DNA of 63,563 bases, counting the filler, from Collodictyon triciliatum (Eukaryota): the NCBI GenBank assembly GCA_043381765.1. It is 5 parts of 5 records of this genome, joined end to end, with 100 filler letters (N's around TTAATTAATTAA, not from the genome) between each part and the next. Parts side by side here need not be neighbours in the genome. Positions count along the whole stretch, not along the records: positions 47,833 to 61,753 come from JBHJMP010000731.1; 4 more parts are not named here. One strand, 5' to 3'. Below, piece after piece: positions 2,009-62,070 of this stretch (position 1 is the first letter of the stretch; each line of letters starts with the position of its first letter). The notes under the pieces were generated by a model. It saw only the letters and a program-made list of their open reading frames with translations. It ran no database searches and was not told the DNA's origin. Position numbers and translations under genes: made by a program.

Positions 2009-2094
<86 letters not shown>

Positions 2095-3976
2095 GAGACG
2101 ATTGAAACTGTGACGATTTACATAATTGCCCGATATCCAGGCGACCCCCTCGGGATGGAAAGAAGGAACTCCGTTACATCACTATTCAGCAGCGGCGGAT
2201 TCGACTTTCCATCTTCGGCGTACGCAGGCGACTTCCAGGACATACCCAACGAGCATGCACCCATGGGCTACAGCCCATTCAGCTCAGGCACAGCTGCCAC
2301 CCTGCCGGACGAATTTGCAGGCTCCTCGCAACAGCTCACAACACCTGCCACATCCTCAAAGCCAACGACGACTACTGCACCGTCTCAATTCTACGCAACG
2401 CCGTCCATCTCAGCAACCCCTTTCACAATTGCATCTCCAGGCACCGGACCAGTAACGCACTCATTCTCAGCAGAATCCCATGCGTTCTCCATAGCCCCTC
2501 CGGAATTCGCTGCCGAGCAGGCCCGCGCAAAGCCCATACGCGAGCAAGCACAAACCAACAGCACCGACGCAGACAAAGATTCCAGCCATGCAAGCCGCCC
2601 CGGTGACAATCCTGACGACACTGAGAACGATAATGAGGAGTCGGCCTTAATGGAGGTCCAGAAGTTTCTCAACACCAGCGACACCGCACCAGACAAAGAC
2701 CAAGAGTCTGAAACGCAAGCAGCAACAACAACAACGTTAGACAGCATCAAGGCACTGCATCCTATGCATGCCGGGACGAAGCAGGAGATTGGGACATTTG
2801 CGACCCCAACGCCGATGCAAATACCGACTGCATCTTCCATTCCGATACAAACGCAGATGCAGATGCCGCTATCAGCCGCGAATCACCCACACTGCTCTTT
2901 GGGTGTACGAGATGATAAGACGGAGGGAGTCTCAGCTCGGAGGGATTTCCCCATCTCCTTTCCTGCACCGCGCCCGCGTACCCACTCACAGTCGTCGGCC
3001 ACATCGTCAGACAGCCTGGAGAAGGTGCTGATTCTGATGAAGGGTCTGATCCCGCTGATCCAGGTTGCCCTTGCGGCGGATCGGTGCTCCATCTACGTCC
3101 ACGATTCAACGCGCTCTGAGCTCTGCACGCTCTTCAGCGCAGGCCCCGACGTGATGCACCTGCGCATTCCAGACACGACAGGCATTGCCGGCTCCGTCTA
3201 CAACAGCGGCCGCCTGGTCAACATCGCAGACGTCTACTCAGATCCCCGCTTCTACTCGTCGGTGGACCAGAACACCGGGTACAAGACAAAGTCGATGCTC
3301 TGCGCCCCGGTCCGGCTCGCTGCGGCCTCCCGCACGGCCGGCGTCATTCAGGCCATTAACAAGCGCGGTGGAGTTGCGTTCTCGCCGGCGGATGAGCAGC
3401 TGCTCCAGCACTTTGTTGCTGTTGTTGCTGCCTTCTTGGAGCGTGTGCAGGAGGACGCGGGTGTGCTTCGGGGCGTCGGCGCAAAGAGCAAGGGCTTTGG
3501 AGCTGCGGATGACAGCGGAGACGATGACGAGAGCGCGACCCAGCTCACAAACCGTTCCGTCTCCGAGGCTGACGATAGCCACAGTGTACTTACCCATCTT
3601 TATATCTGGGCATATCAGAGCATATTTTGCTCTCTCTTTTTTCTCTCTCTTTTTTCTCTCTCTTTTTTCTCTCTCTCTTTTCTCTCTCTCTTTTCTCTCT
3701 CTCTCTCCTCCTTTTTCATTTCAATACAGCCATGCTTCTCATTAAACTCGGTGCCACTAGCAAATCTCCGGCGCCTCTGGCCGTGAGCGCACGCGGTCTT
3801 TGGGCAACCAGGAGCCGCGCTTCGAGACATTCCACATCGACCCGAACCAGAAGCCTCGCAGGCCAAAGAAGCCCGTCAGACAGAATCCATCAGAGACGCA
3901 CGTGCAAACCAACCAGCAGAAAAAGTACAAGTCTGGCCAGTTTCCGGTCTTTCATTTCCGCACATCAAAGAAGTAA
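911..3976 (+). CDS. BTB/POZ(-BACK-like) domain protein with C-terminal PDE-type GAF domain; predicted exons 911-1712, 2141-3585, 3761-3976
   Basis: Exon 1 has the BTB signature SDVTFMVEGVLFYAHKHVICTRCPYF...FAILLRYIYT. Exon 2 has the GAF signature ADRCSIY...GIAGSV...NIADVYSDPRF...D.NTGYKTKSMLCAP...VIQAINK...F...DEQLL. The GT-AG junctions (g|gtatta...ccag|gc; agt|gtactt...ctag|caa) keep frame to TAA at 3974-3976. Intron 1 spans an N gap. Confidence 0.75.
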
Positions 3977-17063: not shown

Positions 17064-17107
17064 NNNNNNNNNNNNNNNNNNNNNNNNNNNNNNNNNNNNN
17101 NNNNNNN

Positions 17108-17119
17108 TTAATTAATTAA
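17108..17119. other. Assembly linker TTAATTAATTAA flanked by Ns
   Basis: Identical six-frame-stop 12-mer inside an N spacer; recurs four times in the window. Confidence 0.95.
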
Positions 17120-18371
17120 NNNNNNNNNNNNNNNNNNNNNNNNNNNNNNNNNNNNNNNNNNNNGAGAATAGAAAGAGAATAGAAAGAGAATAGAAAGAGA
17201 ATAGAAAGAGAATAGAAAGAGAATAGAAAGAGAATAGAAAGAGAATAGAAAGAGAATAGAAAGAGAAAAAAAGAGAAAAAAAGAGATAAAAAAGAGATAA
17301 AAAAGAGATAAAAAAGAGATAAAAAGAGATAAAAAAGAGATAAAAAAGAGATAAAAAAGAGATAAAAAGAGAAAAAAGAGAAAAGGGGCGGCGTAGCGTA
17401 AGGTTAGTTGTAAATAAATTGTATTTGTCATCCAGCTGTTTTGTTGTCATATGCATATACTGATAGGATGAGTCTGACACACACCTGAGAGCCTCGGCCT
17501 TCTTTTGCAGTTTTCTGAGAAGAATAAAGTCTAGAGAGAAGATTGTGATGTTTTGATATAAATGGTTAGATAAAATATCCAGAATGGGCTGCTTGATAAA
17601 AATATGCTACGCTGAAAAGGACTGATGAAACAAAAATTGTAACAAAAACGTAAGAATGATTTGCTGCACCATCTAGTCTGGTCATATTAATATTGTCTTC
17701 CAGCGATGTAGATTCCAGGAGATTTTGATACTGTGTAATGTTCTGATTATGTTCAGGAGAGCGTAAATGGGCAAGAGTTAGACCGAAAAATAAGCTTTTC
17801 CTAATTTTTCATTTTAAACGCCAGGCGGATATAAATTGAGCTAAAAGGAATAGAACGAGAGCTCCTGAAAGGCAAGAGCCATTTGACAAAACAGATAGAC
17901 GAGAAAATGAGACATAGCTCACAAAGTTAAAATGGAAAAAACATGGAAAAAATGAAAAAAACATGGAAAAAAACGAAAACGAATTCGAAAACGAAAAAGA
18001 AACGATAAAAAGATAAAAAGATAAAAAGATAAAAAGATAAAAAGATAAAAAGATAAAAAGATAAAAAGATAAAAAGATAAAAAGATAAAAAGATAAAAAG
18101 AAAAAAAGATAAAAAGATAAAAAGATAAAAAGATAAAAAGATAAAAAGAAAAAAAGAAAAAAAGAAAAAAAGAAAAAAAGAAAAAAAGAAAAAAAGAAAA
18201 AAAGAAAGAAAGAAAAAAGAAAAAAAGAAAAAAAGAAAAAAAGAAAAAAAGAAAAAAAGAAAAAAAGAAAGAAAGAAAATAGAAAAAGAAAAAGAAAAAA
18301 GGAATAATTGGCCAAACCTCCCAAATAGAGTCATACTCATTTTCCCCCACGCAAACGCTCTAAACACCTAG

Positions 18372-30017
<11,646 letters not shown>

Positions 30018-30394
30018 GTGAGTATACTAGATCTTTGTGAACCCTTTTACCCATTTACATTTTTTTTATCTTTTTTTTTTTATCTTTTTTTATCTTCTTT
30101 TATCTTTTTTATCTTTTTTATCTTTTTTATCTTTTTTATCTTTTTTATCTTTTTTATCTTTTTTTTATCTTTTTTTATCTTTTTATCTTTTTTTATCTTT
30201 TTTTATCTTTTTTTATCTTTTTTTATCTTTTTTATCTTTTTTATCTTTTTTATCTTTTTTTATCTTTTTTTTATCTTTTTTTTATCTTTTTATCTTTTTT
30301 TTATCTTTTTTTATCTTTTTTTATCTTTTTTTATCTTTTTTTATCTTCTTNNNNNNNNNNNNNNNNNNNNNNNNNNNNNNNNNNNNNNNNNNNN

Positions 30395-30406
30395 TTAATT
30401 AATTAA
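30395..30406. other. Assembly linker TTAATTAATTAA
   Basis: Same N-flanked 12-mer. Confidence 0.95.
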
Positions 30407-30450
30407 NNNNNNNNNNNNNNNNNNNNNNNNNNNNNNNNNNNNNNNNNNNN

Positions 30451-45081: not shown

Positions 45082-45837
45082 TGCTCGTATTTCATTCGGA
45101 ATAAATAGTGGGGAAAAACATAAACGGCATGTAAACAACATTCATTCTTATAATTCTCTTTCGATTGACATTATTTGAGGCCGTTTGCTGCGCAGCACCC
45201 GATTAAATCAAATGTGTTGGAATCAATCATGAAAAAAAAATTGCCATCGTTCATCCTCCGTATACCTGGAATCAATAGGTTCATTAGCTTTCAATTAAAC
45301 GAATATATCAAAGCACCAAAATAAGATACGGCCCACTCCTGCTTTCACACGTTTTGTGACATTGCTCGCGAGGAGTGGTGGTTTGCTTTGGAGAGACTTT
45401 GAAGGCTGTCTGGGCAGATATTTCCTTGGATGCATACCATTTTAAGTAAAGCAAACAACAGTTTTGGGTGGGTTGGGCAGATAGTATCGAGAAAATGCGA
45501 CGAATACATAACCCGGCTGACTCAATGTGATTTTGCAATAGATACACTTGATAGTAGTGGTGACAGTTACAGGAAAAAGCGCAGACGATATTTTTAGATT
45601 CATATATTATAAATTCCAGATGCAAATGGTTTCGAATCTCACCGAATGGGAATCATGGGAACAGCGACATCCCAAACAAAGAAGCGGAAACCAAACCACT
45701 CGCAACAGAGTCACAGAGCAGCAGACAAAAGCCGAGTCAAAGACACAACCGACTCTGACGAGAGTGCGACACGCACACAGACACACACAAACTGAAACTG
45801 CACATGACCAAGCGCAGACGGACGCACGAATCAGCGG

Positions 45838-47592
45838 ATGAGCAACGAGACGGCAGCGCGCTTTGAAAGCACCGACGAATGCCTGCCTTTGCTTGCAGAC
45901 GAAGACACGGACGCTGGGAAGGGAGCAGGCCGCTTCAAGAACGATGCTGCGCTTCTGCGCCGGTTGCGCATGCGTGTCTTTGTCCTCACGTGGCTGGGCT
46001 ACTTCTCCTTCTACCTGACACGCAAGCCCATCTCTGTGGTGAAGAGCACCCTGGAGGACGACGAAGGCATCAGCTCCACCACACTCAGCTTCTACGACAC
46101 GGGATACCTGACTACATACGCAGTCGGCCAGTTTGTCAACGGCGCTCTTGGCGACCGCATCGGCTCCCGTTGGTTGATCAGCATCGGTCTGTGGGTCATT
46201 TCGCAAACTGCATAGTCAGTCAAAGTCCACAGCAAATCACAGCGATGCTGACAGCAGACTGACTTTCGACTATCAACCATTCTTTTTATATTTTTTATAT
46301 ATATTTCTTTCCTCATTACTATTCTTTATTTGTTGTTGTATTTTTTTATTAATGTTATACTTAATAATTGGGGGGCGAACAGGACTCATCGGCTCCTCCC
46401 TGTGCTGTGGGCTCTTTGCGCTCACGACGGACGAGTGGTATCTGGGTATCCTGTGGACTCTGAATGGATTCTTCCAGTCGTGCGGGTGGCCAGGGTGTGT
46501 CAAAGGCATGACCCCGTGGTTCACGACAGCCGAGCGTGGTGCTCTGATGGGGTGGTGGAGTACGTGCTACCAGGTATTATTCGGTAATTACAAAACATAA
46601 AAAATCATAAAAATCATAAAAATCATAAAAATCAAAAAAATCATAAAAAAACATAAAAAACATAAAAAAAACATAAAATAAAGAAAAAAACATCCGTGTT
46701 GAAGCAACATTGAACACGAAACAAAAACAAGCATGCCCGATGTTTACACTGAGAGGCAAACCAACAAACACCCCAGATTGGCGGCGTAGTTGGCACAGTC
46801 ATCTCCACGGCCTTCCTGGACGCATACGGATGGGAAACGGCGTTTTTCTACCCATCGCTCTTTGTGTTCTGCAGCGGAATCTTTATCGGGGCGTTTCTCG
46901 TAAACCACCCGAACGATGCGGGGCTGGAGTCGCCGCTGGAGCTGGAGCAGCGAGCCAGCCAGAAGCCCGGGGTGACGGAGCAGATGCCGATTCTGCAGGC
47001 GCTGCTGCTGCCCGGGGTGATTGAGATTGGGCTTGCGTACTTCTGCCTCAAGCTTGTGCGGTATGCGCTGCTCTTCTGGCTGCCGTACTACCTGGACGAG
47101 GAGGTCGGGTACTCGTCCGGCACGGCCGGGTATGTGTCGGCCATGTTTGACGTGGGCGGGTCCATCGGCAGCGTTGCGGCAGGCTATGCGTCGGACCGGT
47201 GGGCGGGCGGCCGTCGCGTTGTTGTTGCTGCGCCCAGCTTCATCCTGGCTGCGGCGGCCATGGGGCTCTACATCGCCGTGGGCGACGACGGGGTCGCACT
47301 CAACGCGGCCGTCTTGGCCTTTGTCGGTGTCTTCATCTTTGCGCCCGACTCCATCCTTGCCGGGGCTGCTGCGCAGGACATCGGCGGCGCTGCGTCCTCC
47401 ACCGTGGCCGGGCTCATCAACGGCATCGGCTCCATCGGCGCAATCCTGCAGGGCCCCGTCACAGACCAGATGGCCGACAACTACGGCTGGCAGTCCCTCT
47501 TCTACCTCCTCATCGGCATGTGCGGCCTCGCCTTTCTGGTTCTGCTCAGGCTGCTGCGCAGAGAGATTCGTGCTGGCCCAAAGATTCTCTGA
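45838..47592 (+). CDS. MFS organophosphate:Pi antiporter, SLC37/GlpT/UhpT family; exons 45838-46186, 46383-46573, 46777-47592
   Basis: YLTRKP, YAVGQFVNGALGDRIG, NGFFQSCGWPGCVKGMTPWF...ERGALMGWWSTC, FCLKLVRYALLFWLPYYL, DVGG..G...AGYASD and VAGLINGIGSIGA motifs. Confidence 0.92.
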
Positions 47593-47732: not shown

Positions 47733-47776
47733 NNNNNNNNNNNNNNNNNNNNNNNNNNNNNNNNNNNNNNNNNNNN

Positions 47777-47788
47777 TTAATTAATTAA
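47777..47788. other. Assembly linker TTAATTAATTAA
   Basis: Same N-flanked 12-mer. Confidence 0.95.
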
Positions 47789-48237
47789 NNNNNNNNNNNN
47801 NNNNNNNNNNNNNNNNNNNNNNNNNNNNNNNNCAAAAAAACAAAAAAACAAAAAAACAAAAAAACAAAAAAACAAAAAAACAAAAAAACAAAAAAAAACA
47901 AAAAAAAAACAAAAAAACGAAAAAACAAAAAACAAAAAAAAAACAAAAAAACAAAAAAACAAAAAAACAAAAAAACAAAAAAAGCTTTTGGGGGCTAGGA
48001 TCAGAAACAAAGCCAATCTTACCTATGCCTTCTTTGTATCATCTGTGCCTTGTCTCACGACTGGGTCGAGTTCTCAGTCTGTGTCCACGACGGCAATTTT
48101 TTTATGTAGTTCCAACAGTGATGTTTGGGTCGCAGTTAACATCAATCTGAAAACCATCAATCTACTTTAATCAAAGGGAAACAAACAAGGAAGAAAAAAA
48201 AAAGGAAGAGAAGCAAAAAAAGGGTTGGCTGAGCTCT

Positions 48238-50199
48238 ATGACGGACTATGTGCAAGTGTCTATTCGCATTCGCACCTTCATTCCCCGAGATGCCGCCGTC
48301 CACGCGCGTCCCTGTGTGACAGCAAAAGAGCAGAAGCTCGTGATCGGAACCGACGAACTGGGTTATTCTTCAGCCTTTCCTTTCCTTTTTTTTTTTTTTT
48401 TTTTTAATAAGTTGTCCGTTTTATTTACCTCTTACTTCCTATGCAAATTGCTATGAAATGATATGTACTGAATGAATAGGTCAAAAGACTTTTCAGTTTG
48501 ACAGTGTTTGGCATCCGCAATCGAAAGGTTTCGGTCTTCTATGACGCTTTAAACCTTTATATGTGCTTGGAATCCATATCACCCGCTAGTTCTATTCTCC
48601 AAAGCAAACTTACATTGATTTCTGCGGTCATATACTTTTGTGTCTCAATTTCTTTAAATTCTTCCTCGTTGCATACATCCAGAGACGTCCATCGTATCGG
48701 ATCAGAAAAACTTCTTTGACTCTGTGATTTCTCCGATGATGTCTCATTTTGAAGAAGGTTTCATTTCAGATGCTTCGCCGCCACAAATTGGCTGATGATT
48801 GTTACTCACAGCAGGAAAGAAACAAAAGACTTTGTAGATATCTGACAAAGAATTTCCTTCAAACAACAATTGTCCTCTAGGATTTGACTGCACAGTGTTT
48901 ACTTACGGCCACTCCAACACTGGAAATACGCACACATGTTTTGGAACTTTCCCGCACGTCGGACTTGTCCCACTTTTTGCTGATGCGATGTATAATCGGG
49001 TCGGAAACTTTGAGCATGACAAGGTTCTTCGATGATACAATCAATCCACAGTCTCCTCTCCAAACCCAACCTCCTCCTCCTCCTCCTCCTAACTTTAATA
49101 TCTCGTTATATCACTTGTAATGAGGGCAATACGAAATACTCTACAATAACAACCAGAGCCCCTGAAAATGGTGTTGCAGAAATTCTTCGCTGCGCAGAAG
49201 GCCATGTGTCCTTTTACTCACTTATATCTTCCTTTTCTTTATTTTTTTTTTATTTTTTTTTAGAAAACACGTCTTGGATTTTCCTTAGTGGAGGTATTCA
49301 ACGACCAAGTTATCGACTTAATGAGCGTGGAACCGCCGCGTGCAAGTTTGAAGGTATCTTATCCACCGTTTTCACCATAACTCATATGTACAAAAAATTC
49401 ACCAGGATAGATGTTGTGCCAAGACCATTCGCATGAAAGTTTCTTCTCTCCATCATACCTTTTAAGGTTATTGTGTCATTAAAATCGCGAAATAAGTTGA
49501 TTAATCTTTCAAACTGCGTAGTTGCGGCTTCAGAAGACAGGATACGTATTGGATGGACTTACTGAAATAGCTGTGATAAATCTTCAAGACTTTGCTGAGA
49601 GACTCGCTGTGGGCCTGCAAAGAAGGTTACAATTCAAACATTACACCACGTCTTTTTGAGTGCAAATCAAGGTGCAAATAATAGATCTGACCCGTACATA
49701 ACATCGCCACAAAAAGAGCGAGAGAGAATAGTATACGTCCTCAATCTTTATGTTCGACTCAACGCTTTCTAATTGTTCCCTTTTTTTTTTCTTTTTTTTT
49801 TCAGATCTGTTGGAAGCACCTCATCAAATCCCGCTTGCTCAAGGGCGCATACTCTGGTAAGGAGAACAATCTACAGTTTCTTTCCATTTTTTTTTGGAGT
49901 GTTACAACCTACCTTGAGGCCGTTTATTCGCCCCATTATGAAAATGAGTAGGAGATATTACCTCAAAAATATGAAATCAATTAGGCCATATTCACTCTCT
50001 ATACGTCCATCACCGAAGAAGGTCGTAATTATGAGAGAATAGCAAAGTTTAGCTTCTACGACATCGCTGGTGAGACTATTTGCGTGATATTGAGATCCAT
50101 GTGCACTATTACCATTACTGGATGGTTATGTGATAGCCATTTTGTCAAGTATCGATTGACATCCAGAGTCTTGATTCTTTATCTCGGTTTAAGACACCA

Positions 50200-50280
<81 letters not shown>

Positions 50281-52840
50281 TTGCGTAATCAATTCGTAAA
50301 TACTGAAATTCTGGTCGGTAACAGGCCGCCAAAGGGCTGAAACCTCAGGTTTGAAAGGAGAACGGCTCAAAGAAGCGTCAAAAATCAACCTGAGCCATTC
50401 TGCTCTGTTTAAAGTTGTCGATATCCTATCCAACTCGAAGAAGAGCTCACGCAAAGCATCTGACACCACACAGCTGATTCCCTACCGGGAAACAATCCTG
50501 ACACAGCTTCTGAAGGAGGCATTGGGAGGCAGAAGGTATTCATGCATATATGTAGGAGAAATCCTGAGCTTTTATTTCAATTTATTCACCAGTTCCAAAA
50601 TACTTACGAAAGCCAATGGTCACGTTTTTTTTTTTTTGTTGACTCTTGGTGTTCGCATTATTTCATATGTCGTATCCTTTAAGCCCCGAAATTTATTATT
50701 CGAAAAATTGCCGCTCATAAATACATATCGATGCAGTAAAGCTCATATGGTTGGTTGTGTCAGTCCGTGTGACGTGGACATTGAGGACACGCTCGTTACT
50801 CTTCGACTTGCCGATAAGATGAAGTGCATATTATTCATCAATGAGTTCTTCATAAGAATCTATATATTTTCTTATTTTTTGTTTCNNNNNNNNNNNNNNN
50901 NNNNNNNNNNNNNNNNNNNNNNNNNNNNNNNNNNNNNNNNNNNNNNNNNNNNNNNNNNNNNNNNNNNNNNNNNNNNNNNNNNNNNNNNNNNNNNNNNNNN
51001 NNNNNNNNNNNNNNNNNNNNNNNNNNNNNNNNNNNNNNNNNNNNNNNNNNNNNNNNNNNNNNNNNNNNNNNNNNNNNNNNNNNNNNNNNNNNNNNNNNNN
51101 NNNNNNNNNNNNNNNNNNNNNNNNNNNNNNNNNNNNNNNNNNNNNNNNNNNNNNNNNNNNNNNNNNNNNNNNNNNNNNNNNNNNNNNNNNNNNNNNNNNN
51201 NNNNNNNNNNNNNNNNNNNNNNNNNNNNNNNNNNNNNNNNNNNNNNNNNNNNNNNNNNNNNNNNNNNNNNNNNNNNNNNNNNNNNNNNNNNNNNNNNNNN
51301 NNNNNNNNNNNNNNNNNNNNNNNNNNNNNNNNNNNNNNNNNNNNNNNNNNNNNNNNNNNNNNNNNNNNNNNNNNNNNNNNNNNNNNNNNNNNNNNNNNNN
51401 NNNNNNNNNNNNNNNNNNNNNNNNNNNNNNNNNNNNNNNNNNNNNNNNNNNNNNNNNNNNNNNNNNNNNNNNNNNNNNNNNNNNNNNNNNNNTTTTTTTT
51501 TTATTTTGTGGGAGAAAATCAACCACTTACGTCCTGAACTACCACAGAGAGCGCACGCAAGTCATCGCGCCGATTCACCACCACCGGGGAAAGCATCGGG
51601 TACCGAGACGACATCTCTGAAGTGTCCTGGACAGACAGCATCCGCAGCGGCCGTTTCTCTGTGCGTGGAATGACCCGACCTGAGGCCGAGCAGCAGAGAC
51701 TCCGCAGCAGCTCGTCAAAGATACCAACACCCTCGCCAAACTTCAAAGGCAAGAAGGAGACACCAAACCTCAGCATCAAAGCTGGAGAATCGCTGCACTC
51801 GCCAAAGAAAGGCCCGCTCGTCTTCTCGCCCTCCAAGAGAAACTCCCCGACTGCGGCCACCGCCACAGAGTATCTCTACCCAAACGAAGCATCCAACGTG
51901 CATCCACACCTGCTGCATGCCGAGATCGAAACGCAGACAGAGTTTTTCGAGGAACACAACTACAACAGAGACTACGACTCCAGCGTCGGGGTTGGGACTG
52001 AAGAGGCGCCCACACCGTCCTCAAAGAGCAACGCCTCGCGGGGCATAGACTTTGAAGTCCAGACACGGGCGGACGAGGCCGAGGCCGAAGACGAAGACGA
52101 AGACGAGCCACCGCGGGCTATTTCGCGTGCTTGGTCGATGCCAAACAGGGTTTTGCCGACTGCTGAGGAGTCAGATTGGCAAACAACAACGACAACAACA
52201 TCATCAACAACAGCACTGGTGGCGGCGATGGACAACCACGAAGGCGCAGATGCAAAAACCACGCAAGAGCAGCAGCAAAAGCAGATGTCGCGGACTGATG
52301 AGAAATCAGAGAACTCGGGTGCTCAAGGCATGCCAGCCGCATCGGCCCTGAGTGTGTCCCAGAGCACAAAGACAGTCGCGTATGTCGGCCGCCCTCAGGC
52401 CTTCTACCACATGAGCAGCCCTGCTTTTCTTGTGCCGGCGCAGCCTGCCTTCCAACACAGCAGCTTTTTTGCACAGCCCGTTCCGATGCAAGCGCACGTG
52501 CCTCCTCCGCAGCCGAGATTTGTTCAGCCCGGCGCGCTGCGACACTCGGTCGATCTGTCAAACTTCCCTGTCACGCAGACAGCTTATCCTGTTCCTGGTA
52601 TCCCCATTGTCCACTCTGCCTCCGGCGCTAATCACCCGGCATCGCAGGTAGTCTTTGATGGGCTGCGCTTCACCTGATTTCTTTGCTCCGTCTTCGTCTT
52701 CTCTTTTGCCTTGCCCTATTTGTCTCAAAGATATAATGAGACGCGCAACATTCATGGACTTTTTTCTTTTTTCTCAATCTCTTTTTTCTCAACAGGTAAA
52801 CGCGGCTCCCTTCTCACACGGCGCACTCATCCCTCAATAG
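48238..52840 (+). CDS. Divergent N-terminal kinesin motor-domain protein with low-complexity tail (probable pseudo-kinesin)
   Basis: Spliced translation VQVSIRIR...FQFDSVW...GFDCTVFTYGHSNTGNTHTCFG...GLVP...SLVEVFNDQVIDL...GLTE...NPACSRAH...FYDIAGRQRAETSGLKGERLKEASKINLS...IPYRETILTQLLKEALGGRSKAHMVGCVSP...EDTLVTLRLADKMK gives the complete kinesin fold. The join to the tail crosses an N gap. Confidence 0.88.
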
Positions 52841-53707
52841 AGCCTCGTGGGGAGTGACGATTTTCAATATCTATCGTTCCCTCTTTTCTTTCATCCTTCT
52901 ATTCTTTTACTCTCTCCTCCTTTGCCACCATTCACAGCCCCGTTCTTTTTCTTTTCCATCTCGTCAGTCACTGGGTGGAACAAGAATAAGCAATCCAACA
53001 AAAACAAAAACAAAACATCTATTGAAAAAAGGTAACCTGACATTATATTTATTTTATTTTTTTGTCATAATTACAGTTATTACTGCTCTGTTTCTGTTCG
53101 TGCGTGTATCATTTGTATATTCGGATGCGATGCAAACACAAAAGACTTGCGCGAAATACTTGGACTCTTGGCAAACGATGCGCTCAGAGGCCGCCGGGCG
53201 CAACGCGAGAGGCAAGCAGAGTGACTCTGGGAAGCAGCTCAAAGACGCGCTCTGGATGGATTCGTCTGGTGTTTTCGCCCACAGCTTTTCTGCGGCAGGG
53301 GATTGGCAGCGGCGATTCTGGGGGCTTATTCTTATTTATTTTCTTTTTTCTTTTTTCTTTTTTCTTTTTTCTTTTTTCTTTTCTTTTCTCTTTTCTTTTT
53401 CTTTTTTCTTTTTTCTTTTTTCTATATTTATATTTTTTATATTTATTATCATTTTCTTTTTTCTTTTTTCTTTTTTCTTTTTTATATTTTTTATATTTAT
53501 ATTTTTTTTATTATTATTATTTTCCTTTTTTCTTTTTTTTTGAATCAGCCACACACAAGTAATTGAATTTTCAAATCAGCCCAAGAAAAAACAAGACAAA
53601 ACAATAGAACAAAAGAAAAGAAAAAAGCAAAAGACAGGAGAGAGCGACGCTGCTCTGTTGCAAGGCATCTAAAAAGAGTGCGTTTCTATCGTTGAAGAGT
53701 CGCGTTC

Positions 53708-61587
<7,880 letters not shown>

Positions 61588-61797
61588 GTCTTTAAATCTT
61601 TTCCTTTTTCTTTTTTTATTTTTCCCTTTTACTTTTTTACTTTTCTTCACTTTTTTACTTTTCTTTAAATCTTTTCCTTTTTCTTTTTTACTCTTTTACT
61701 TTTTTACTTTTTTACTTTTTTTTTACTTTTTTTTTTTTCTTTTTTACTTTTTTNNNNNNNNNNNNNNNNNNNNNNNNNNNNNNNNNNNNNNNNNNNN

Positions 61798-61809
61798 TTA
61801 ATTAATTAA
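61798..61809. other. Assembly linker TTAATTAATTAA
   Basis: Same N-flanked 12-mer. Confidence 0.95.
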
Positions 61810-62070
61810 NNNNNNNNNNNNNNNNNNNNNNNNNNNNNNNNNNNNNNNNNNNNTTTTTTTTTTTTTTTTTTTTTTTTTCTTTTTTTTTCTTTTTTTTTTG
61901 GCTGCAAAACAACAAAAATTCAGGTCTGAATAGCTTTATTATCATGTAATTGACTTTTAAGCATTTAAGAGAAAATAAAAATCATAATCTCACTTAATAT
62001 TGGACTCTATTCGGGGCCAAAAAAATTAATAAAGCAAAATAATTTAAGATGGTGGCGTAGGAATGAATCG

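Follow-up and report, generated by a model that had tools for sequence, protein, structure and literature searches.

A candidate kinesin-3-derived pseudo-motor of Collodictyon triciliatum and Diphylleia rotans lacking the P-loop lysine and switch II glutamate

Introduction

Can a kinesin whose nucleotide-binding motifs depart from the canonical sequences be a genuine, conserved protein, and what would its motor domain then do? The question is raised by a gene in a 63,563-nucleotide stretch of DNA (the window) from the eukaryote Collodictyon triciliatum (GCA_043381765.1), composed of five genome parts joined end to end, of which positions 47,833 to 61,753 come from JBHJMP010000731.1. An earlier note on this DNA described at 48238..50825 a kinesin with all nucleotide-binding motifs degenerate, and proposed that it is an independently derived, ATPase-dead scaffold or heterodimer partner and not a pseudogene. 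Here we find that the P-loop lysine and the switch II glutamate are replaced both in C. triciliatum and in an orthologue from Diphylleia rotans, that tree and intron positions point to a KIF28-type kinesin-3 ancestry, and that a static microtubule scaffold is the probable function. Costal2 is a familiar example of a non-catalytic kinesin-like protein. The papers cited by identifier below are quoted from excerpts of their text.

Results

Loss of the P-loop lysine and switch II glutamate in two species

The D. rotans orthologue (P0003; EukProt, transcript-derived) is a complete protein of 733 residues and the sole relative among 117 candidates in a search with exon 9. The motors of the two species are identical at 224 of 339 positions (66%) with 0 internal gaps, and their tails at 127 of 328 (39%) with 18 gaps. 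The D. rotans motifs read GHSTTGNT in the P-loop, DIAGRQR in switch II, RIRP at N-4 and NQASSRAH in switch I. Both proteins were aligned with 257 motors, namely those of 268 database hits that cover at least 270 residues. The P-loop lysine column holds Lys in all 257 of these nearest full motors and Asn in both species, and the switch II glutamate column holds Glu in 256 of the 257 (the other has a gap), where both species read DIAGRQ. Because P0003 shares the P-loop Asn and the Arg-Gln pair at sites where the nearest motors keep Lys and Glu, the replacements are not a product of chance or sequencing error. Elsewhere in the C. triciliatum genome, where 48 kinesin loci were modelled (122 of 203 candidates were scored, so that the survey is a lower bound), Lys is present in 42 of 42 loci with a complete P-loop and Glu in 41 of the 43 with switch II covered.

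The alignment has 61 near-invariant columns. Both species retain the usual residue in 42 of these and depart from it in 15, and the other 4 are altered in a single species. In 12 of the 15 columns altered in both, C. triciliatum and D. rotans have the same new residue, including Q95H, K100N, L241I, S244R, E245Q, L267H and E330D (P0003 numbering); the Arg at S244 recurs in 1 of the 257 other motors. The four single-species changes all belong to C. triciliatum, and three of them take in N-4 RIRT and switch I CSRAH. Switch I is canonical in D. rotans and has one Ser replaced by Cys in C. triciliatum, and the SRAH variant itself occurs in 39 of the 257 other motors. Since the RIRT and CSRAH changes are confined to C. 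triciliatum, the conserved lesion consists of the P-loop and switch II and not of four motifs. To call all nucleotide-binding motifs degenerate, as the earlier note did, was therefore an overstatement: the switch I Asn, Ser, Arg and His, the Mg ligands and the N-4 RxR are kept.

In terms of KIF5B, the equivalents of T92, S202 and D231 (Mg site), R203, E250 and N255 are retained in both species, as are those of G234, N198 and H205 together with the N-4 RxR, whereas those of K91, E236 and Y138 are lost (mapped by motif). In KIF5B, K91 contacts the alpha and beta phosphates and E236 forms a salt bridge with R203 (PMC4383081, in excerpt). The motor domain is recognised in sequence, with the Kinesin motor domain PF00225 matching P0003 over residues 12-344 (profile positions 1-327, E 4.9e-73). 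C. triciliatum and D. rotans have identical residues at 19 of 20 positions in loop 12/helix 5, at 32 of 39 in the segment from switch II through loop 11 to helix 4 and at 11 of 12 in the P-loop region, against 223 of 334 overall; the predicted microtubule-binding motifs are preserved in both.

Searches for further members were negative within the collections used, which may lack close genomes and so do not delimit the range. Three word-indexed protein searches returned no orthologue beyond D. rotans, and neither did the best 150 of 1.84 billion representatives, where the next best match has 29-38% identity. A metagenome scan with P0003 gave 23 candidates, of which 0 were confirmed as orthologues, a metagenome scan with the degenerate P-loop pattern gave 0 matches, and the ESM Atlas yielded generic kinesin clusters only. 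Four further Diphyllatea transcriptomes exist (PMC11603278, in excerpt).

Gene structure and transcript evidence

The motor region occupies 48238-50823 on the plus strand in ten exons separated by nine introns, all GT..AG, with an uninterrupted frame of 339 codons; the intact frame that had been noted through the core exons is thus borne out. The motifs read earlier (GHSNTGNT, NPACSRAH, DIAG/RQ, RIRT and PYRETILTQ) are each present at the positions listed below. The gene runs past the 48238..50825 interval to a stop codon at 52840, and a DNA search of the 75-Mb, intron-rich genome finds it in single copy (G000:C731). Spliced alignment of canonical-motor profiles to the genome independently recovered the same exon model and refined the exon 6 acceptor to 49522, which removes the sole gap relative to the D. 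rotans orthologue; an acceptor at 49534 was rejected in favour of this gap-free fit. The features are as follows.

48238..48361, +, exon 1: start codon; N-4 motif RIRT at 48265-48276 (RIRP in D. rotans); RNA contig of run X9 over 48195-48341
48480..48527, +, exon 2: junction to exon 3 present in RNA run X9
48683..48757, +, exon 3: introns on both sides removed in X9 record 22
48881..49023, +, exon 4: P-loop GHSNTGNT at 48907-48930, with GGA-AAT-ACG at 48922-48930; Walker A Lys replaced by Asn (AAT, 48925-48927)
49264..49353, +, exon 5: closed-switch-network Tyr (KIF5B Y138) is Phe here and Leu in D. rotans
49522..49625, +, exon 6: loop 8/beta5; RNA X7 record 17 spans 49569-49625
49805..49856, +, exon 7: switch I NPACSRAH at 49827-49850, with Asn, second Ser, Arg and His retained; RNA joint 49855-49984 in X7
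49985..50069, +, exon 8: ends within switch II (DIA-G, 50060-50069) at a phase-1 intron
50325..50535, +, exon 9: switch II GC-CGC-CAA at 50325-50332, with Arg-Gln (CGC CAA, 50327-50332) replacing Ser-Glu; loop 11/helix 4; basic loop 12; PYRETILTQ at 50480-50506
50737..50823, +, exon 10: beta8 and helix 6; 3' end uncertain, with candidate donors at 50824 and near 50844
50886..51492, N gap of 607 bases: expected neck region, about D. rotans residues 343-395
51547..52647, +, tail exon: 367 codons, low-complexity and rich in Ser, Pro and Thr
52796..52840, +, probable last exon with stop: loose alignment to the D. rotans C-terminus

Read contigs, of depths 2-4, were compared from 4 of the 11 sequencing runs found. 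A contig of RNA run X9 joins exons 2, 3 and 4, and one of RNA run X7, which belongs to a different study, passes through exons 6, 7 and 8; at such depths the RNA shows splicing and not expression level. None of the read contigs listed covers codon 48925-48927 or the 50069/50325 junction. An X2 DNA contig (50292-50442) includes the acceptor of exon 9 as well as the Arg-Gln codons and has only two differences, both synonymous, and 3 of the 4 exon variants listed are synonymous, a weak signal at depth 2-4. The switch II intron has the same position and phase in the canonical paralogues L039 and L074, and since this phase-1 intron is common to KIF28-type paralogues, the 50069/50325 junction is independently supported. 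Spliced RNA in two studies and an orthologue without internal gaps uphold the earlier view that the gene is not a pseudogene. Runs X1 and X2 show deletions of one base at 50427 and 50429, which would shift the frame; they were rejected because the contigs concerned match over just 32 bases and otherwise have long ends unrelated to the locus.

Affinity to KIF28-type kinesin-3

The best PDB sequence matches of P0003 are the kinesin-3 motors KIF13B and KIF1A. A tree of 44 rows (LG+C20) places the C. triciliatum and D. rotans pair inside kinesin-3 (support 100/96) and within the KIF28 group (90/84). The stem of the pair measures 3.98 (range 3.9-4.0) and its tips 0.43 and 0.17; with six long rows removed, the KIF28 group has a Shimodaira-Hasegawa-like approximate likelihood-ratio (SH-aLRT) support of 99. 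In the approximately unbiased (AU) test, a KIF1/13/16 grouping is rejected (p 0.0017) and a kinesin-2 grouping is not (p 0.128). A clade uniting the pair with the five Diphyllatea KIF28 rows was not recovered, and it is not rejected either (p 0.128). A FastTree placement beside the long-branched P0257 at the base of kinesin-3 was treated as long-branch attraction.

Because the AU test leaves the kinesin-2 grouping unrejected, the tree alone is not decisive, and gene structure decides. Six of the nine introns match those of three KIF28-type paralogues (L037, L039 and L074) in exact position and phase, four or five in each, with the paralogue gene models being predictions without RNA support. 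Two further introns match within one residue, in gappy loops. The 45 other loci share at most one intron with the pseudo-motor, and the kinesin-2 locus L034 shares 0. Local signatures common to the pseudo-motor and the KIF28-type motors include SRAHT, INLS, LTQ..ALGG and the basic loop 12. Taken with the tree, these observations suggest that the gene likely arose by duplication from a KIF28-type kinesin-3, and the independent derivation claimed in the earlier note finds support here, as tree and introns point to KIF28 and not to Vik1 or to KIF26, which has no row in the tree. The C. triciliatum genome holds three KIF28-type paralogues, two of which have one-to-one D. rotans orthologues.

A divergent tail with candidate linear motifs

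A profile search (E up to 1) finds neither FHA nor KIF1B domains in P0003, and the tail has no Pfam match. A crude home-made heptad score finds 0 coiled-coil windows of at least 14 after the D. rotans motor, compared with 10, 10 and 12 in three KIF28 proteins; the margin is thin, with a best score of 13.8 in D. rotans against 15.4-16.1 in the KIF28 controls, and the C. triciliatum neck lies inside the N gap. The lack of FHA and, by this crude score, of a coiled coil argues against a heterodimer partner. Five runs of at least four residues are identical in both tails: YRDDISE, SKIP, LVFSP, GIDFEVQT and PVPGIPI. The candidate motifs are as follows.

51715..51726, +, SKIP: candidate SxIP end-binding (EB) protein motif, identical in D. 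rotans residues 452-455
51799..51840, +, two S-P-x-K/R sites: both also in D. rotans
52042..52065, +, GIDFEVQT: eight residues identical in both species

The S-P-x-K/R sites presumably follow the consensus of cyclin-dependent kinases (CDK) and are candidate sites, and GIDFEVQT is what we take to be a candidate LC8-type linear motif. According to PMC4834103 (in excerpt), SxIP motifs that bind EB proteins lie in a basic, acid-free, disordered context. The SKIP neighbourhood is acid-free in both species, with a basic residue among the four preceding positions in C. triciliatum only. Exact S[KR]IP occurs in 1-2% of shuffled tails, and 4% of the 4-mers in the tail are exactly conserved, so that SKIP is a modest signal for possible EB binding. 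Four EB1 matches are present in the C. triciliatum genome. Two of these genes, L081 and L082 (G000:C4125 and C9329), are near-identical copies a few bases apart, either separately assembled alleles or a recent duplicate, and the other two are more divergent.

Discussion

A static microtubule scaffold as the probable function

We consider it probable, though well short of settled, that this protein is a hydrolysis-dead, likely rigor-like scaffold that binds microtubules and stays in place rather than walking. With the P-loop Lys lost, nucleotide would be weakly held, which would favour the nucleotide-free, strong-binding state; if ATP did bind, the switch II Gln would trap a strong-binding state before hydrolysis; either way the head would not cycle. 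Because both routes predict strong, non-cycling binding, a static scaffold is favoured. Single mutants of other motors are the precedent: KIF3B E250Q, the same Glu-to-Gln change, is a rigor mutant that decorates microtubules and whose motor function in cells is abolished (PMC11043552), kinesin-1 E236A is trapped before hydrolysis (PMC12005725), and P-loop changes that destabilise the pocket favour the nucleotide-free, strongly bound state (PMC10656020; all three in excerpt). A literature search directed at P-loop lysine mutants returned no paper. As a prediction from sequence, the ATPase-dead state proposed earlier thus agrees with the loss of both residues in both species. Lacking an evident coiled coil, the protein would likely be a monomer or be dimerised by a partner, and its disordered tail would likely supply partners, with SKIP recruiting EB proteins and the CDK-type sites acting as a switch. 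By analogy, the likely target would be a stable microtubule array such as the feeding-groove roots.

Several points weigh against this reading. ATPase loss and microtubule binding are both properties that we infer. Rigor behaviour was recorded in motors that are normal apart from one mutation, and here about 15 invariant sites changed together, so the resting state could differ. A protein that is fully nucleotide-free would have no need of the Mg ligands and of most of switch I, yet these remain. Conservation is lowest in helix 6, where 8 of 15 positions are identical between species (E330D, R340K). Identity between the two species is 66% here and 90% and 85% for two canonical kinesin pairs, so that the pseudo-motor evolves 3-4 times faster than active paralogues, and it is found in two species only within the collections searched. 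The kinesin-2 grouping survives the AU test. Loose SxIP occurs in about 40% of shuffled tails, and in D. rotans none of the four residues ahead of SKIP is basic, so that one context rule is missed.

A bolder version of the scaffold is conceivable but on balance unlikely: a natural rigor protein in which the change known from KIF3B as a dominant disease allele became fixed in Diphyllatea, the P-loop/switch II interface was rebuilt (with Arg possibly standing in for the Walker A Lys), the cargo and dimer modules were dropped and an EB-binding, CDK-regulated tail was gained, the whole serving as a feeding-groove clamp or a nucleotide-gated latch.

Alternative explanations

Since the Mg ligands are retained and Arg244 is fixed, a remodelled nucleotide sensor is conceivable. 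Its pocket would still bind Mg-ATP or ADP, the switch II Arg would replace the P-loop Lys, and the affinity for microtubules would change with nucleotide occupancy while little or nothing is hydrolysed. The pocket framework common to both species, the near-identical P-loop region and an Arg so rare among other motors fit this idea; retained pocket residues may also reflect fold stability, however, and C. triciliatum has additionally lost the Pro of N-4 and the first Ser of switch I, which suggests a relaxed need for nucleotide. We regard a sensor as unlikely. A weak or conditional binder, which EB proteins would position via SKIP so that it tracks plus ends or serves as a scaffold in signalling, is somewhat more doubtful. 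It would account for a SKIP identical in both species within a basic, Ser/Pro-rich stretch, for an exact S[KR]IP of the kind that only 1.2% of shuffled tails contain, for the EB1 genes and for the drifted helix 6, but the near-invariant loop 12/helix 5 speaks against weak binding, and a single SxIP is a modest signal that in D. rotans falls short of the context given in the PMC4834103 excerpt. That the head serves as a foothold in the manner of Vik1/Cik1, forming a heterodimer with an active KIF28 paralogue and tuning its motility, seems to us improbable. Three active KIF28-type paralogues are available in the genome, D. rotans has a neck-linker-like stretch after helix 6, and precedent for such pairing is established, yet the Kar3 heterodimers that supply it rely on a long coiled coil (PMC4338441, in excerpt for both statements), for which the heptad score after the D. 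rotans motor was negative by its thin margin. Of the two roles offered in the earlier note, the scaffold is accordingly preferred and the heterodimer partner is the weaker.

Two further readings carry very little weight. A slow but active ATPase, or a motor with changed chemistry, could draw on the fold-defining and Mg-binding residues retained (42 of the 61 near-invariant columns in both species), but neither the Lys that binds phosphate nor the catalytic Glu remains, and in the PMC11043552 excerpt Glu-to-Gln alone abolishes KIF3B function, making this highly improbable. A pseudogene, assembly error or mis-spliced model might be suspected from the fragmented assembly, the N gap inside the gene and the lack of read contigs over codon 48925 and the switch II junction. 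Set against this are the same residues in an orthologue with 0 internal gaps over 339 columns, spliced RNA in two studies, a switch II intron with the position and phase of the canonical paralogues and mostly synonymous exon variants, and we give an artefact almost no credence.

Relation to known kinesins

The static scaffold that we favour belongs among known dead kinesins as a separately derived, kinesin-3-born example. Its closest relatives in descent are the KIF28/KLP-6 subgroup (D. rotans P0143 and P0131; L037, L039 and L074; Apostichopus KIF28, P0132), which it resembles in tree placement, introns and local signatures. It differs from them in lacking the P-loop Lys, the switch II Glu, FHA, KIF1B and an evident neck coil, in its very long stem branch and in its unrelated, low-complexity tail. 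The closest functional model is provided by KIF26A/KIF26B and Smy1 (kinesin-11), kinesin folds without the canonical P-loop and DLAGSE. KIF26A/B and Smy1 are non-catalytic (PMC3387196, PMC12783630), and Kif26b is described as staying on microtubules in ATP with no ATP release (PMC3387196; all in excerpt). The pseudo-motor core, by contrast, aligns with normal motors over its full length and carries few targeted substitutions, and its ancestry points to KIF28 by tree and introns, there being no KIF26 row in the tree or among the hits. By prediction, it functions like KIF26 and descends from KIF28.

KinesinWW of Diplonema papillatum, likened here by description only, is likewise a lineage-restricted, conserved protist kinesin without functional P-loop and switch residues, and it sits at the diplonemid cytopharynx, a microtubule-based feeding structure; unlike the pseudo-motor it is highly degenerate, has a WW domain and belongs to Euglenozoa (bioRxiv 10.64898/2026.03.30.714256, in excerpt). 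Vik1/Cik1 also have a non-catalytic kinesin-like head, which binds microtubules, but their heads are kinesin-14-type, C-terminal and without ATP-binding elements, and pair with Kar3 via a long coiled coil (PMC4338441, in excerpt), whereas the pseudo-motor head is N-terminal, retains the pocket framework and has no clear coiled coil. The rigor mutants KIF3B E250Q (the identical substitution), kinesin-1 E236A and KIF5B K91R/T87I are changed at the same positions; theirs are dominant, harmful single changes, while here the changes are fixed in two species together with about ten other shared substitutions. Our literature search, which left most subscription journals outside, found no report of a Diphyllatea kinesin or a dead kinesin-3, and papers that mention kinesin with Collodictyon do exist.

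With this locus, a transport-type kinesin-3 would have given rise separately to a non-catalytic kinesin. The event falls in CRuMs, a group branching close to the base of Amorphea, and hardly any molecular work has been done on the cytoskeleton of this group. Unlike Vik1 or KinesinWW, its head aligns to normal motors throughout and active sister paralogues persist in the same genomes, so that the two can be compared cleanly to learn which few substitutions convert a motor into a microtubule-binding scaffold. It is also a case for how a harmful rigor change becomes tolerable, and it implies that counting Pfam hits gives too high a number of kinesin motors.

Other kinesins and neighbouring features

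The C. triciliatum genome has at least 49 kinesin-bearing contigs. Three intron-rich loci, known from predicted models, keep the P-loop Lys and have altered switches: L069 (G000:C1745) reads MNRSH with DLAGR, L070 (G000:C4624) TNRSH with DLAGIE and L075 (G000:C1717) SAEGH with ILAGSE. L050 (G000:C7911:1-3020) is an intronless, GC-rich and very divergent kinesin with the longest branch in the tree, which keeps the Lys (GGRGTGKT) and has unrecognisable switches I and II; possible explanations are a second dead motor, a retrocopy and a contaminating contig. From these sequences, the genome may contain several impaired motors. NACHT matches number 44 genome-wide, most in intronless open frames of 1,000-3,400 codons, unusual for an intron-rich genome, and 0 fall on kinesin-bearing contigs.

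Neighbouring features of the window are as follows.

866-1747 and 2092-3783, +: BTB-domain and GAF-domain open frames
17064-17163, 30351-30450, 47733-47832 and 61754-61853: joints of 44 N, a 12-base spacer and 44 N, which are linkers and not biology; the spacer at 47777-47788 has stops in all frames
45808-47592, +: MFS_1 transporter with a GC-rich last exon, upstream on a different contig (C729) and with no evident link to the kinesin
about 53700-58500, +: downstream intron-rich gene, by eye presumably an RRP6/EXOSC10-type 3'-5' exonuclease-like protein

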